A stretch of 64,000 nucleotides of DNA from a virus (IMGVR_UViG_3300044216_005818:1145-65144), one strand, 5' to 3'; positions 19,160-38,362 are shown, counted from the stretch's first letter. A program made the numbers and translations. The notes: generated by a model from the letters alone, not told the origin.

Positions 19160-22100
19160 ATGAAAGTAGCCCTTTTACCAGGTGGGTTTAAACCACCTCA
19201 TCTTGGACATTATAATATGGCAAAATATCTTGCAGATTTTGCTGATAATGTTATAGTAAGAATTGGATCAAAAGAACGAGAAGGTATAGGGCCTAGATTA
19301 GCTTTAGAAATTTTTAATTATTATAAAGCATCTGATCCAGATCCAAGAGCACAAAAACTTACTATTAGCTTAGCACAAGCTGCATCTCCTGTAAGAGATG
19401 TTTATGATTTTGTTGAAAAAATAGCTCCTGAAGGATCAGAGTTAATTTTAGGAATAGGGGAGAAAGATGCTAAAGACGGAAGATATAATAGTATCCCCAA
19501 ATTTGCAGAACCTCGTAATATTAAAGCTAAAATTGAATTAGTACCACCTCAAGCAGGGGGTATTTCAGGTACGCGTATGCGTGAAATTATTAAAAATAAT
19601 AATAAAGAAGAATTTTTTAAATTCATTCCTGAATTTTTACCTGAAGAAATTAAAGAAGAAATTTGGACTAAATTGTTAGATACTACTATGCCCACTGATA
19701 TAGATGAAATGATGGGTGGTACTATGAATCAACAAGAAATGAATAAACATATGGCTAATATGAAAAAGCTACGTAAATTCTTTTCTAAACAAGGCGACCA
19801 AATGACCCAAATCCCTACTAATTTGACTAAAGGATTACGTAGAAAATTATATGAAGGACGCTACGATGCAGAAACTTTAATAATATCCCGCTTTATTATA
19901 GATATGTTTAAGGATGAATTTGGTAAAAATTATGAAGATGATTTTGAAGAAATAGGAAAATTAAGGAGGTCCGATAAAAAAGAAGACACTGCGGTTTCTT
20001 ATGATTTAGAATTATATTTTTACCCTACTGACTTTGATAAACTAGGTCCAAACCCATTTATTGTAAATGCAGGTGCGGATGATGAATCAATGTTTATTCA
20101 AATTAACTATCAACCTGATATGTTTCCTAAAGCATATAATGATTTAATAGCTGAAATTAAAGATTCTGTAAGACATGAATTAGAACATATAGGGCAATTT
20201 CATTTTGATAAAGGAGTTAAAGGTGATTTAGAAAAAGACGAAAAAGATTTACCTACGTTTGAATATCTTACTTTAGATTATGAAATTCCTGCTCATGTAA
20301 TGGGGATTTATAAAAATGCTAAAACAAGAAAAATTTCATTTACTCAAGCATTACAGGATTTTATAGATAGTAAAGCCGAAGAACTATCTAATGATCAGGA
20401 AGATAAAATAACCCAAATTTATACAGATTATGCTCGTAAACATTTACCGGCAGCTAAATTAGATGAAGGTGATACTTACGAAAAAATGGCTGCTAAGGGT
20501 AAAAAAGCGGGCAACCTAAAACAGGGTACTGTTAGAAAACGTTTAAACATTCCTAAAGGTGAAAAAATACCTCTTTCATTAATTAATAAAGAGTTAGCAC
20601 GCCTTAGAAAAATGGAAAAGCGGAGTGCTAAAAACCAAAAGTATTATAAAGCACTTACATTAGCTAAAACGTTAAAAACTACAACTCATAAAGAAAATAT
20701 AGATCCTGAAGCTCAAAGAAAACATAAAGGTAAATCGGCCCCGTATGGTTCTGCTTATGAACCCGTGAAAGAAGGAGACCCTAAAGTAGGCACAGGTAAA
20801 AAACCAAAAGGATCAGGACGTAGACTTTATACAGATGAAGATCCTACAGATACAGTAAAAGTTAAATTTAGTACTAGACAAGATATAGTAAATACTTTAT
20901 CTAAAAAGTCATTTAAAGCTAAATCACATGCTCGCCAATCACAGATTATTAATTTAATTCATCAAAGAGTTAGAGCAGCTTTATCCCGGGCTAAAGATCC
21001 TGCAGTAAAAAAACGACTACGTTCGGCATTTGAATATATTAAAAAACGTAAAGAAGCTTCTAAAAGAAAAACACAACGCTTAAAAAAAGAAGGTATGTAT
21101 CCTCCTTATAAAGCTAATCAAGTACAACAAACTAGATATAAAGCAAGTGATACATTTACTAGAGATCCTAAAAAATCTAAAAAATTAGGATACCTTGAAG
21201 AAATAGGAATTGATTTATCTAACTATAGTGGTCAAATACTTCCTGGTGATGTTTTACGTGCTCCTAAAGGATTTCCATTAGGAGGTAAAAAATTAGAAAA
21301 ATCTAAAGTAGTAAAAGTAATTAAAAATTCTAGAGAAGGTGTCAATCGTTATAAATTATCCGTAGAAGATAAAGACGGTAAAAGATATACAGTGCGTAAT
21401 TTTGAAATGGATGGGGAATATAAAGGTAAAAAATTACCTAAATTTGGCCTTATTCGTAAATCTAAAAAAAATATAGATGAAATGAAATTATTTTCACAAG
21501 AATGGTGGTTTGATGTAATCGCTGAAGAAATATTATATGAAGGTGGTGCTGCTGGACATATGGCTCATCCATTTGATTTACCAAATGTTAAAACAGGTAA
21601 AGATTTAATTAAGTCATTTGAACAAGCTGCTGATAGTCTTAAAAAAGCACCTGGTAGTGTTAAGATAGATGGCGTAAATGCGTCAATTAGATTAATAAAT
21701 CTCGACGGAAAACGAATCTTCGCCATGGACCGCGGATCAAAAAAGGCACTTGATTTACGTGGCGTTACTAAAGCTGACTTAGAAGATAGATTTGGTGCTG
21801 GCCACGGGATGATTAAAGCTGGTGGTAATGTATTAGATATATTTAATGATGCCTTACCATCAATTCAAGAAGAATTAAGAGCATTGGGGTTAATTGATGA
21901 TCCTAATATTATGTTTAATATGGAGTATGTTAGTGGTAAATCAAATGTTCAAGACTATGGTAAAAATTTCCTAGCAATCCACGGTTTACTAAAAGTAGAA
22001 ACTAAAGAAGTACAAGGAGCTCGTAAAATGTTAACTAAAAGAGTAACATCTGAAAAACTATATGATAAAGCTGATTTAGAAGAATTACTTAAAAAATTAG

Positions 22101-22609
22101 AACCTTTTGCTAAAAAGAAAGGATTTGAAATTTATGGTTCTGTACCTACCAGATTTACTAAAGAACCAGATTTTAAATCTGCTTTAAACACCAAATACAC
22201 AATCGATACAGCCGAAGGCGATGAAACTAAAACTTTAGCCCAATGGTTAGATAGGGTTAATAGTATTCCTAAAACTGATCGTTTAAAAATGAATATTGAA
22301 GAAACTGACTCTATTAAAGATGTTGGTGCACTAAGTAAACAAGTATATTTTGCTGTATTTGGTGGTGAAAATGTAGACTCATTATTTAGTAGTGAACAAG
22401 AAGTTAATAAAGCAATCCAAGGAGCTACTACATACTTAGCAACAGAAAAGTTAGGCGACGCAATACTAGATGTGTTAGATTCACCTATGGGTTCTGTTAA
22501 TGATCACGAAGGTGTAGTTATACGTGATGATAAAATTTCACCTAGACCATTTAAAGTTACAGGTAAATTTATAACCGGAGGTGTATCCTCAGATTTTCAG
22601 AAAAAATGA
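19160..22609 (+). CDS. Multidomain protein: N-terminal HxGH cytidylyltransferase-like domain, HExxH zincin-like domain, basic modules, C-terminal ligase-type nucleotidyltransferase-like domain
   Basis: GGFKPPHLGH and ISGTRMR; VRHELEH; KIDGVN...NMEY...HEGVVIR...FKVTG. Confidence 0.7.
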   Translation: MKVALLPGGFKPPHLGHYNMAKYLADFADNVIVRIGSKEREGIGPRLALEIFNYYKASDPDPRAQKLTISLAQAASPVRDVYDFVEKIAPEGSELILGIGEKDAKDGRYNSIPKFAEPRNIKAKIELVPPQAGGISGTRMREIIKNNNKEEFFKFIPEFLPEEIKEEIWTKLLDTTMPTDIDEMMGGTMNQQEMNKHMANMKKLRKFFSKQGDQMTQIPTNLTKGLRRKLYEGRYDAETLIISRFIIDMFKDEFGKNYEDDFEEIGKLRRSDKKEDTAVSYDLELYFYPTDFDKLGPNPFIVNAGADDESMFIQINYQPDMFPKAYNDLIAEIKDSVRHELEHIGQFHFDKGVKGDLEKDEKDLPTFEYLTLDYEIPAHVMGIYKNAKTRKISFTQALQDFIDSKAEELSNDQEDKITQIYTDYARKHLPAAKLDEGDTYEKMAAKGKKAGNLKQGTVRKRLNIPKGEKIPLSLINKELARLRKMEKRSAKNQKYYKALTLAKTLKTTTHKENIDPEAQRKHKGKSAPYGSAYEPVKEGDPKVGTGKKPKGSGRRLYTDEDPTDTVKVKFSTRQDIVNTLSKKSFKAKSHARQSQIINLIHQRVRAALSRAKDPAVKKRLRSAFEYIKKRKEASKRKTQRLKKEGMYPPYKANQVQQTRYKASDTFTRDPKKSKKLGYLEEIGIDLSNYSGQILPGDVLRAPKGFPLGGKKLEKSKVVKVIKNSREGVNRYKLSVEDKDGKRYTVRNFEMDGEYKGKKLPKFGLIRKSKKNIDEMKLFSQEWWFDVIAEEILYEGGAAGHMAHPFDLPNVKTGKDLIKSFEQAADSLKKAPGSVKIDGVNASIRLINLDGKRIFAMDRGSKKALDLRGVTKADLEDRFGAGHGMIKAGGNVLDIFNDALPSIQEELRALGLIDDPNIMFNMEYVSGKSNVQDYGKNFLAIHGLLKVETKEVQGARKMLTKRVTSEKLYDKADLEELLKKLEPFAKKKGFEIYGSVPTRFTKEPDFKSALNTKYTIDTAEGDETKTLAQWLDRVNSIPKTDRLKMNIEETDSIKDVGALSKQVYFAVFGGENVDSLFSSEQEVNKAIQGATTYLATEKLGDAILDVLDSPMGSVNDHEGVVIRDDKISPRPFKVTGKFITGGVSSDFQKK

Positions 22610-25723: not shown

Positions 25724-27274
25724 ATGGATTTTTTAGACGAAGCAGTATATAATATAAAAAAAGGTGCCATGCCACCTGATCCTGAATCATTAGATAAGGA
25801 TGATGTTGTAAACATTGGTGAAAAAAAATTAGACCCTGTTGGTAAAGAAGACGATGACATTAATAATGATGGAAAAGTAAATAGTACTGATAAGTACTTA
25901 GCTAATAAAAGAAAGGCAATAGCTAAAGCTCTTTTAAAGTCTAAAAAAACCATTAAAAAAGAAGATCTTGAAGAAGGTAAGTTATCTAATGCTTTAGGTG
26001 GTGCTGCTATGCTTGCAAGTTTATTATTAATAGGTAAACTTAATTCAAACGATAAAGTAGTACAACGTTTAAAAGCCGAATATGAACAAGCAGAACCAGC
26101 TCAAAAAGATTCTATTCAAAATCTATTAACTAAAAGATTAATATTTTTAGATACGGGAGAGTTTGATGATTCTACCCCTATGGATGAAAATGTTGCTTTA
26201 AAAGGATTAGATGCCGTAGGAGGATTTATAGCTAGGGGATTAAGTAAACTTACCTCTTCAGAAAAAATTAAACTTACAGGAGTTATAGATGCCCTTGATA
26301 AACTTATTGATATACCTGATATCCCTGATGATAAAAAAACGTTTTTAAAAAACACTATCAAGGATTTAGAAGCAGGGAAGGAAAGTCCTTTTAAAGGAGA
26401 TAAAAAAAAAGAAAAAGAATTTTTTGATTTTTTAGATAAAACCTCTATTTCTAAAGAAGAAAAAGAAGCTATTATGAAACAAAATAATAATCTTAAAAGT
26501 AAAGAACAAATTAAAGGAACCGGAGGCAAAACTTTAGTAGACCCATCTGGTAAGCCTATTACACGAGCTGATATGAAAGAAGATAAAAAAGAAGAATTTA
26601 ACTATAAGGCTCCTAAAGATAAAGATAAGGATGATATTAAAATAGATCCTGATACCCAATTTAAAGTTGATTTAAAACACCTTATTCAAAAACACATGAT
26701 GGAAGGTAAGTCTAAAGAAGATGTAATCAAACTTACTAAAAAATTAATGGCTAAACTTCATAATAAAGGTGAAGTTAAAATCGATGGTACTACACTTATA
26801 TTTAAAGAAGCTGATGTCCCTCAAGATACACAACTAGCCCTTCCAGAACCACCTAAACGTACAGCAAACTTTTTAGGTCCTGATAATATGGATTATGAGG
26901 GGGGAATGGCAAAATCACAAATGCTTAAAATGAAAAATTATGCTAAAGCATTATGTGATATGATTGATGATGAAACACAATTAGAGTCATGGGTCCAAGC
27001 TAAACTAACTAAAGCTTCTGATTATATGTCTTCAGTTTACCATTATTTAGATTATCAACGCACTAAAAATGTAAATGAAGCAATGATTAGTGGTAAAAAA
27101 GTTGATCCTAGAAGTTTAGAAGGTGAAGACAATATGTTTACTTATGCCGAATTTATGGATGGTACTAAATTAACTGATGATGAATTAGATCAATTAACTG
27201 ATGATGGTGATATGCTATATAGTTACTTTGGTCCTGGTGGTGTAGGACATGTCCCTAGAAGTGATTTTATGTAA
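25724..27274 (+). CDS. Modular putative head-internal protein
   Basis: DDDINNDGKVNSTDKYL is an EF-hand/dockerin-like loop; DYEGGMAKSQ...WVQAKLTKASDY helical module; many x-x-E junctions. Confidence 0.65.
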   Translation: MDFLDEAVYNIKKGAMPPDPESLDKDDVVNIGEKKLDPVGKEDDDINNDGKVNSTDKYLANKRKAIAKALLKSKKTIKKEDLEEGKLSNALGGAAMLASLLLIGKLNSNDKVVQRLKAEYEQAEPAQKDSIQNLLTKRLIFLDTGEFDDSTPMDENVALKGLDAVGGFIARGLSKLTSSEKIKLTGVIDALDKLIDIPDIPDDKKTFLKNTIKDLEAGKESPFKGDKKKEKEFFDFLDKTSISKEEKEAIMKQNNNLKSKEQIKGTGGKTLVDPSGKPITRADMKEDKKEEFNYKAPKDKDKDDIKIDPDTQFKVDLKHLIQKHMMEGKSKEDVIKLTKKLMAKLHNKGEVKIDGTTLIFKEADVPQDTQLALPEPPKRTANFLGPDNMDYEGGMAKSQMLKMKNYAKALCDMIDDETQLESWVQAKLTKASDYMSSVYHYLDYQRTKNVNEAMISGKKVDPRSLEGEDNMFTYAEFMDGTKLTDDELDQLTDDGDMLYSYFGPGGVGHVPRSDFM

Positions 27275-37619: not shown

Positions 37620-37760
37620 ATGGCAAGAAAAATTAGCGCATTCGATTTTAATAAAAAAGATAATAAAGTAAATAGACCCGGTATCCATGCTAAAACTAAG
37701 CATAGTAACCATAAAAACTCTAAAAACTATAGAAAACTGAATAGAGGCCAAGGAAGATGA
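37620..37760 (+). CDS. 46-aa highly basic peptide (absent from the ORF track)
   Basis: MARKISAFDFNKKDNKVNRPGIHAKTKHSNHKNSKNYRKLNRGQGR; fills the gap exactly and overlaps the protease start (ATGA). Confidence 0.65.
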   Translation: MARKISAFDFNKKDNKVNRPGIHAKTKHSNHKNSKNYRKLNRGQGR

Positions 37761-38362
37761 AACAATTACTTATAGAACATATACCGTTTAAAGTAGATAA
37801 ACTTTTAGTTGAACAATCTATTAAAGAAAATAAACCTTTAAGAGTAGGTGGTATTATACAAAGAGCTGGTGTTAAAAACCATAATGGTAGAATCTATGAG
37901 CAAAAAATTCTCGAAAGAGAAATTAAAAAATATATTGATGGTCCTGTTAGAGAAAAAAGAGCCCTGGGTGAATTAGATCACCCAGACTCTTCTGTTATTA
38001 ATTTAAATAACGTATCTCATAATATAGTAGAAGTTACTATGAAGGGAAACGATGTACATGGAGTAGTAGAAATATTAACTACCCCTGCGGGAAATATTTT
38101 AAAAGAATTATTTCGTTGTGGAGTTACAGTTGGTATATCTTCTAGAGGTATGGGTTCAGTAGAAGAAAATGCTGATGGTGTATTAATGGTACAAGAAGAT
38201 TTTGATCTTCTATGCTTTGATTTTGTTTCAACACCTTCTACTCCGGGTGCTTATATGGCTCCTATGAATGAGGGAGTAAATACCTCCACAACAGACTATA
38301 TTAAAGTTAATAGTATTATTAGAGATATAATCTGTGATAATACAGGAATGTGTAAGTGTTAA
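37757..38362 (+). CDS. Prohead protease (T4 gp21-like)
   Basis: NHNGRIY, ALGELDHP, SHNI, VGISSRGMGS and DFVSTPS. Confidence 0.93.
   Translation: MKQLLIEHIPFKVDKLLVEQSIKENKPLRVGGIIQRAGVKNHNGRIYEQKILEREIKKYIDGPVREKRALGELDHPDSSVINLNNVSHNIVEVTMKGNDVHGVVEILTTPAGNILKELFRCGVTVGISSRGMGSVEENADGVLMVQEDFDLLCFDFVSTPSTPGAYMAPMNEGVNTSTTDYIKVNSIIRDIICDNTGMCKC

Follow-up and report, generated by a model that had tools for sequence, protein, structure and literature searches.

The closest described systems come from phage T4 and its relatives. T4 RNA ligase 1 (Rnl1, PF09511), which has Pnkp as its partner, flanks its nucleotidyltransferase core with an N-terminal segment and a C-terminal tRNA-specificity domain, T4 Rnl2 likewise has a C-terminal domain, and minimal ATP-dependent DNA ligases carry an OB domain. 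The T4 internal proteins IPI, IPII, IPIII and Alt combine a capsid-targeting sequence with processing by the prohead protease gp21, and the features they share with the present system are leaders of the type M-K-T-F-K-Q/E-F/Y...L/I-x-E, variable and shuffled cargo, and a gp21-type protease in the genome. Gp21 recognizes L/I-x-E and cleaves after it; within the IPIII leader, the residues important to capsid targeting are at positions 4 and 7, and those important to processing at 8 and 10 (PMC9026906). In the T4-like cyanophage S-SZBM1, the 'cytidylyltransferase' S-SZBM1_140 is the sole enzyme found by liquid chromatography-mass spectrometry in virions purified on cesium chloride (PMC9146016). 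The gene considered here lies in a stretch of 64,000 nucleotides (IMGVR_UViG_3300044216_005818:1145-65144, hereafter the window) from a 65-kb IMG/VR contig of a T4-like phage that is ~44% complete. Its open reading frame (ORF), 19160-22609 (+), encodes 1149 amino acids, of which the final 355 and the stop codon are read in frame from 21542-22609. Sequence and model together indicate that this C-terminal domain is a previously unnamed family inside the covalent nucleotidyltransferase superfamily, RNA-ligase-like and to all appearances catalytically intact. The joint reading, to which roughly an even chance is given, is that of an intact RNA-ligase-like enzyme working through a lysyl-nucleoside monophosphate (lysyl-NMP) intermediate, either a ligase or a 5'-adenylyltransferase, which is coupled to a partner enzyme, loaded into the capsid and released by a protease.

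The ligase-like domain (21542..22609, +; ORF residues 795-1149, numbered here as domain residues 1-355, stop codon included in the coordinates) is delimited by the translation, the structural model, its fold neighbors and 410 clusters of relatives. It opens with the signature GGAAGHMAHPFD (residues 1-12; 21542..21577, +), predicted to be the mature N-terminus after cleavage, in which G2, H6, M7, H9, P10 and F11 are kept at 95-99% across the 376 full-length family domains that were aligned to the family hidden Markov model (HMM) and to which all conservation figures refer. Motif I, KIDGVN (41-46; 21662..21679, +), contains K41, the predicted nucleotidyl-accepting lysine judging from its conservation and from the resemblance of the motif to that of T4 Rnl2. 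A DRG triplet (63-65; 21728..21736, +), with D63 and R64 each 99% conserved, offers at K41+23 an arginine resembling that of motif Ia and presumably equivalent to it in function. Motif III, FNMEY (125-129, with E128), and motif IIIa, FLAIHG (143-148), span 21914..21985 (+) and are recognized by conservation and by alignment to T4 Rnl1 with hhalign; motif IV, HEGVVIR (322-328), and motif V, FKVTG (337-341), span 22505..22564 (+) and are recognized by conservation, a sub-threshold Pfam RNA_ligase match and the spacing seen in T4 Rnl1. K41, G44, E323, G324, K338 and G341 are 100% conserved, D43, N46, N126, E128 and N135 are 99-100% conserved, and H147 is 99% conserved. The superfamily motif residues E128, F143/H147, E323-G324 and K338 follow motif I in order, at 93-100% in the family alignment. 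All of the motif strings listed in the original prediction, together with their lead-in, are therefore found in the translation and in the order typical of ligases, and the absence of an OB domain after motif V that it had reported is confirmed as well, because the protein terminates 14 residues past FKVTG, where standalone relatives stop too.

A HMMER scan of 1.8 billion cluster representatives (50% identity) placed relatives of the domain in 410 clusters when the threshold was E <= 0.001, and in 216 of these the match reached E <= 1e-30. Nearly all of these alignments span residues 1-355 exactly, and the domain is placed at the C-terminus, at the N-terminus, or alone in proteins of ~335-400 amino acids. 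The domain is a genuine, widespread evolutionary unit, and given the number of related clusters and the conservation of the motif residues across the family, the motifs are more than a chance resemblance. The same conservation bears on the notion that the domain is a packaged head protein without catalytic function in which just the ligase-like fold has been retained. Such a protein is conceivable, in that the internal proteins of T4 do not require enzymatic activity (PMC9026906). The catalytic motif residues are nonetheless 99-100% conserved down to ~35% identity, and the notion is scarcely credible.

An AlphaFold2 (AF2) model of the domain, built on 28 relatives, has a mean predicted local distance difference test score (pLDDT) of 93.9 and a predicted template modeling score (pTM) of 0.90. 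Exhaustive structural alignment of this model to 48,161 representative chains gave 24 chains at Z >= 5, of which 23 belong to the superfamily, as ligases of RNA or DNA or as capping enzymes. The best neighbor is T4 Rnl1 (Z 7.7), followed by Prochlorococcus Lig (7.3), NgrRnl and the Trl1 ligase domain (6.8 each), REL1 (6.6), T4 Rnl2 (6.3), MthRnl and Chlorella virus ligase (5.9 each) and the PBCV-1 capping enzyme (5.5), with PCE1 (4.7) and Cet1-associated Ceg1 (4.6) below Z 5; the comparison with Rnl1 and Rnl2 that had been proposed as a check thus returns the superfamily fold. Between 145 and 196 of the 355 residues superpose on any solved ligase, though the alignments span residues 1-350, and those left outside the superposition belong mainly to a family-specific insert of ~150 residues between motifs IIIa and IV, an alpha/beta subdomain (approximately residues 150-300; 21989..22441, +) outlined by the structural alignments and the secondary structure of the model. 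Residues 1-348 of the model align on Rnl1 53-251, which is consistent with K41, E128, E323-G324 and K338 corresponding to Rnl1 K99, E159, E227-G228 and K240, as read from the T4 gene. Capping enzymes share this fold and appear in the list, so that an mRNA-capping-type guanylyltransferase acting on phage or host 5' RNA ends must be considered. It is very improbable: fold matches to capping enzymes reach Z 4.1-5.5 and rank below every RNA ligase family, the OB domain of capping enzymes is absent here, and the motif strings are closest to those of Rnl1 and Rnl2. Nor is capping known in tailed phages.

Profile methods place the domain outside the described families. The Pfam RNA_ligase profile PF09414 scores 16.5 bits (cut-off 27; E 0.0097) over residues 266-339, that is, motifs IV-V, and is sub-threshold; only 2 of the 28 relatives match it, at E ~0.009. 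The domain has no Pfam match to the Rnl1 family profile PF09511 (RNA_lig_T4_1), and PF01068, the DNA ligase adenylation domain, has no match in the window's record or in the records of five relatives. PHROGs and NCBIfam gave nothing useful for the domain, sequence searches of the PDB with the single sequence and with a 28-sequence profile found no ligase at E <= 10, and hhalign of the family profile against the single sequences of T4 Rnl1 and T4 DNA ligase was not significant. Against a 25-sequence Rnl1 profile, hhalign aligned 32 columns covering motifs III-IIIa only (P 0.006, probability 6%), in the correct register, with NFEFV...LILLNV of T4 Rnl1 opposite motifs III-IIIa and E128 on E159. 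Look-alikes proposed by a protein language model were DUF6267 first and then RNA_ligase clusters, which is a lead only. Because each profile test failed, the domain is filed as a new family outside Rnl1, PF09414, PF01068 and DUF6267. The proposal in the original prediction of an RNA-repair or adenylating enzyme is supported as regards the superfamily fold, the invariant motifs and RNA ligases as best neighbors; its analogy to tRNA repair by T4 Rnl1 with Pnk is conjectural. No paper describing the family was found in the literature.

Likenesses to individual ligase groups are partial and differently distributed. T4 Rnl1 and fungal Trl1 are the best RNA ligase neighbors across model residues 1-348, and Rnl1 shares with the domain motifs III and IIIa, which align by profile (N-x-E-[FY]-V...), as well as similar strings and spacing in motifs IV-V (EGYVAV...FKIK in Rnl1, EGVVIR...FKVTG in the domain). 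There is, however, no significant sequence match to Rnl1, whose N-terminal segment and C-terminal tRNA-specificity domain have no counterpart here, and the domain has ~150 residues more between IIIa and IV. Motif I in its longer form, KIDGVNAS, resembles KIHGTNFS of T4 Rnl2, and the arginine of AMDRGS at K41+23 stands close to where Rnl2 has that of AKRTG, at K35+20. The sole Pfam signal of the domain likewise goes to the Rnl2 group PF09414 (REL1, Rnl3, Rnl5; fold Z 5.6-6.8), but both the Rnl2 C-terminal domain and the Rnl5 N-terminal OB-like domain are absent, and motif V has one lysine where Rnl2 has K-x-K. The GGAxGHMxHPFD N-terminus is unique to this family. A small beta-rich module at ORF residues 648-774 was tried as an Rnl5-like N-terminal OB domain, and the idea was dropped because the module is missing in most relatives and because a leader and a site of cleavage type lie between it and the domain.

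Minimal ATP-dependent DNA ligases (Chlorella virus ligase, Lig E-type) have the same nucleotidyltransferase core (Z 5.2-7.3) and a small size, but an OB domain follows motif V in these enzymes, whereas the present domain ends there. The motif I consensus of DNA ligases is KxDGxR. A replicative or repair DNA ligase that seals nicks in the cytoplasm, the insert replacing the OB domain, is a rather unlikely alternative, although the genomic neighborhood speaks for it. The gene comes after a SegE-like GIY-YIG endonuclease and a DnaG-type primase, and in relatives the neighbors are UvsY and a UvsW-like helicase. Searches of the window's record and of those of five relatives found no canonical family of DNA or RNA ligases; among these records is a complete 174-kb genome (G001, CheckV 100% complete) in which, as in four partial relatives, neither PF01068 nor PF01653 occurs. 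Prochlorococcus Lig, itself a minimal DNA ligase, moreover ties with Rnl1 in the fold search. Yet the missing ligase gene alone does not make the domain a DNA ligase, there is neither an OB domain nor any known DNA-binding domain, and motifs I and Ia resemble those of Rnl2 (KIHGTN...R) and not KxDGxR. The capsid-targeting leaders described below also favor a packaged protein over an enzyme of the replisome. With 23 copies found and 20.8 expected, and none of them upstream of the gene, the T4 late-promoter motif TATAAATA carries no information on the timing of expression.

The original prediction had called the domain an orphan. This label is abandoned, since the domain sits in a large family with a near-constant partner; the further suggestion that it is paired with a second nucleotidyltransferase is borne out. 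The partner occupies ORF residues 1-183 (19160..19708, +) and is an HxGH protein (PPHLGH ... ISGTRMR) of PPAT/NMNAT fold, as seen in its AF2 model, in Foldseek and in its fusion in relatives. The model has a pLDDT of 92.3, and its Foldseek matches in the PDB are PPAT and NMN/NaMN adenylyltransferases at E ~1e-6 and probability 1.0. As modeled, the partner is an adenylyltransferase of this fold, which alone gives no substrate assignment. In 388 unique family proteins the HxGH domain stands before the ligase-like domain in 222 and after it in 88, giving 310 fusions, with 55 standalone domains and 23 other arrangements; fusions also make up nearly all of a set of 80 viral loci and the window. An HxGH gene lies next to, or 1.2 kb from, the standalone genes at L076/L077 and L030, and the more distant standalone genes at L085 and L086 have one immediately downstream, so that in the four standalone copies checked the two domains co-occur within ~1.2 kb. 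Fusion in both orders together with conserved adjacency speaks for one functional unit, and no other comparative signal is as strong as this link. Where Rnl1 is partnered by Pnkp, this family is thus partnered by an HxGH adenylyltransferase.

This obligate coupling, in both fusion orders, to an adenylyltransferase fold of small-molecule type raises the question of whether the acceptor is a polynucleotide end at all. The domain could instead transfer a nucleotide to a protein or to a small phosphorylated metabolite, or serve with its partner in a pathway of NAD-type dinucleotides, an option consistent also with the lack of any recognizable nucleic-acid-binding domain and with the pairing, in Flavobacterium phage immuto, of the same partner with an apparent Pol-beta-type nucleotidyltransferase. 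It is nevertheless unlikely. R64 (99%) and K338 (100%) are kept, and their equivalents in ligases contact nucleic acid or nucleotide; no characterized member of the fold that uses the motif I lysine is known to act on anything but polynucleotide 5' ends.

The immuto protein itself (L087:5119-7842, 907 amino acids, annotated NMNAT/NadR) is syntenic, following the primase, and belongs to the nearest cultured phage, whose large terminase is 58% identical to that of the window phage. It consists of the apparent Pol-beta-type N-terminus (GS...DFGDLD), an HxGH domain that is the same as in the window, and a pair of HExxH modules. The ligase-like domain is missing from it, so that the slot beside the partner is taken by another nucleotidyltransferase fold.

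The manner in which the two enzymes are joined recalls the T4 internal proteins. The ligase-like domain is preceded by a leader, MKLFSQEWWFDVIAEEILYE (21482..21541, +), that ends in a predicted prohead-protease site, L-Y-E|G (ILYE|GG), recognized by its P1/P3 pattern and by its resemblance to T4 internal-protein leaders; in context the junction reads IDE|MKLFSQEWWFDVIAEEILYE|GGAAGHM. Further sites of the types x-E|G and x-E|M, at ORF residues 183, 232, 436, 538, 647 and 774, coincide with the BLAST boundaries of modules that are shuffled in close relatives. The N-terminal signature could be located in 425 unique family proteins (the 388 above and ORFs of the viral loci). In 35 of them the domain starts directly after the initiator methionine (M|G); elsewhere the residue preceding it (P1) is glutamate in 375 of 389, and P3 is L, I or V in 385 of 389. 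Short leaders in relatives, such as MKTFKQYILNE, MKTFKEYILNE, MITFKQYLLNE and MNTFEEYFLLE, are of the same kind as the starts of T4 IPI (MKTFKEFTS..ITE) and of IPII and IPIII (MKTYQEFIAE), read from the T4 genome, and 54 of the 94 short leaders of standalone relatives have aromatic residues near positions 4 and 7. Genes adjoining standalone relatives, the HxGH partner included, bear the same leader type (MQTFKQFVHE|A, MTFEKFFTE|Q). The window also encodes a gp21-type prohead protease (Peptidase_S77, PF03420, E 9e-32, above the curated cut-off; 37757..38362, +), the predicted cutter of these junctions. S-SZBM1_140, the cyanophage virion protein introduced above, matches the window partner HMM at 2e-13 and starts MRFRQFIIE|A. 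From this pattern the enzyme would probably be loaded into the capsid and hence be injected with the DNA. In contrast to the T4 internal proteins, a single ORF here strings several enzymes together and has its leaders inside the chain, for which packaging and cleavage are predicted from sequence.

Taken together, the findings suggest the following sequence of events. The two halves would be made as a single chain of 1149 residues with L/I-x-E sites between its modules, and the gp21-type protease would cut this chain inside the prohead, freeing a ligase-like enzyme that starts at Gly795. The freed enzyme is a nucleotidyltransferase core alone, with its ~150-residue insert and its GGAxGHMxHPFD segment and lacking any C-terminal domain, OB or other. 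It would travel in the capsid, reach the next host together with the DNA and could be active there ahead of phage gene expression. In that host, K41 would take adenosine monophosphate (AMP), most likely from ATP, NAD+ being a possible donor given the nature of the partner, and would pass it to the 5'-phosphate end of RNA or DNA, which would then be sealed or left adenylylated. The HxGH adenylyltransferase would act in the same pathway, making a two-enzyme unit whose role in the new host might be, for example, break repair or counter-defense. A more specific version, in which the HxGH enzyme makes the AMP donor locally (NAD+ or a different A-pp-X dinucleotide) or directly pre-adenylylates 5'-phosphate ends that the OB-less core then seals, the pair being injected as a kit, is doubtful. 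If it were correct, an incoming phage would be independent of the host ligase and of NAD+ and ATP pools depleted by defenses, ligation would be split over two unrelated nucleotidyltransferase folds, and the enzyme would be the first ligase known to be delivered in a virion.

Several observations weigh against the capsid-borne RNA-ligase-like enzyme proposed here. The top Z is only 7.7, and values of 7-8 are typical of best matches generally; a Foldseek search of the PDB with the model returned nothing below E 0.05, RNA ligases being scattered among the weak rows, and sequence-profile methods reach significance for no ligase family. Given that there is no single strong structural match, the case rests on enrichment for a single superfamily and on the invariant motifs. 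As to packaging, the N-terminus of the ORF itself (MKVALLPGG) has no capsid-targeting leader, the leader-like MKLFSQEWW... being internal, the gene adjoins a primase and not head genes, and L-x-E might conceivably be conserved for structural reasons, as a piece of the domain itself. The ligase-like DUF6267 protein S-SZBM1_141, adjacent to the packaged cyanophage enzyme, is not listed in the S-SZBM1 virion proteome (PMC9146016). Furthermore, no polynucleotide kinase/phosphatase partner, which would speak for RNA repair, turned up, none having been searched for. Delivery in the virion, as the original prediction envisaged, therefore retains the T4-type leaders, the L/I-x-E junctions, the protease gene and the packaged homologue of the partner on its side, loses the support of a leader at the start of the ORF, and is best described as plausible but unproven.

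The implications, should the proposed capsid-borne enzyme be real, are considerable. A very abundant group of T4-like seawater phages would carry in its capsids a ligase-type enzyme of no described ligase family, representing a seventh or later RNA-ligase-like lineage, built of the core alone and a new insert, with value for enzymology and possible use as a reagent. The strict coupling of a ligase with an HxGH adenylyltransferase would call for a biochemical explanation. The concept of T4 internal proteins, so far one of small inhibitors and Alt, would come to include repair-type enzymes delivered as protease-cut polyproteins. A testable function would also be at hand for the 'cytidylyltransferase' gene, and possibly for its DUF6267 neighbor, both labeled auxiliary metabolic genes, in most of the T4-like cyanophage records searched.

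In Prochlorococcus phage P-HM1 (L090:1480-3242) and Synechococcus phage S-SZBM1 (L096), DUF6267 contains the strings KWDG...EGYV...IKLV in ligase order and is followed by the HxGH 'cytidylyltransferase' gene, which matches the window partner HMM at 1e-12 to 2e-13; DUF6267 homologues occur in 469 phage records. As to the ligase-like halves, searches of BFVD gave weak fold matches of the domain to cyanophage DUF6267 members, the DUF6267 HMM has no match in the window's record at E <= 10, and the HMM of the present family fails to find the cyanophage DUF6267 proteins, so that the profiles do not see each other. The DUF6267 proteins checked, unlike members of the present family, are also without the L-x-E|G leader. 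Membership of the domain in DUF6267, as suggested by the language model, is rejected on these HMM and profile tests, and the resemblance is kept only as a lead. DUF6267 may be an unrecognized ligase-like family, the homology of the two ligase-like halves being a lead and not a result.

Regarding distribution, at least 17 metagenome studies of seawater contain the exact stretch again, and metatranscriptome contigs overlap small parts only of it. A tblastn search of 50,697 isolate phage records with the domain gave zero matches at E <= 0.01, and no cultured phage with this exact family has consequently been found.

Between the two constant domains the ORF holds variable modules (19709..21481, +; defined by BLAST boundaries and the site list), namely an HExxH module, two basic modules and the small beta-rich module. 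The HExxH module (19856-20467, residues 233-436) has VRHELEHIG conserved with the immuto protein and, judging by this motif, could be a zincin-like peptidase or another metal enzyme. Relatives have unrelated cargo in this position, including Fe/Mn superoxide dismutase, plastocyanin, GNAT, DUF192 and HAD-like domains; in-frame examples are L019:1431-5660 (1410 amino acids), L022:6596-11044 and L018:2944-6981. Metagenome contigs from two runs join position 20686 to 21479, 21073 to 21200, and 21443 back to ~20460-20465, and hence co-occurring variants differ within 20465-21479 in module order or by deletions. One short basic module (20778-20904, residues ~540-582, GDPKVGTGKKPKGSGRRLYTDEDPTDTVKV...) reaches a summed contig depth of ~82,000 in a seawater metagenome in which most of the remaining gene has values between a few hundred and a few thousand. 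Its match in Pelagibacter phage HTVC033P is 49% identical, and many marine phages seem to share this small and apparently extremely abundant module. In three relatives (L049:8555-11029, 824 amino acids, P0137 and P0138), the junction of leader and ligase coincides exactly with an in-frame segment resembling an HNH endonuclease, which has a remnant LLTE|GGAADH on one side and LLLC|GGAGGHM, with cysteine and not glutamate at P1, on the other. The segment may be a mobile element that targets this junction. Finally, a 516-residue ORF at 25724-27274 of the window matches several PHROGs through its residues 23-83, one of them labeled cytidyltransferase, and may be a second HxGH-related gene.

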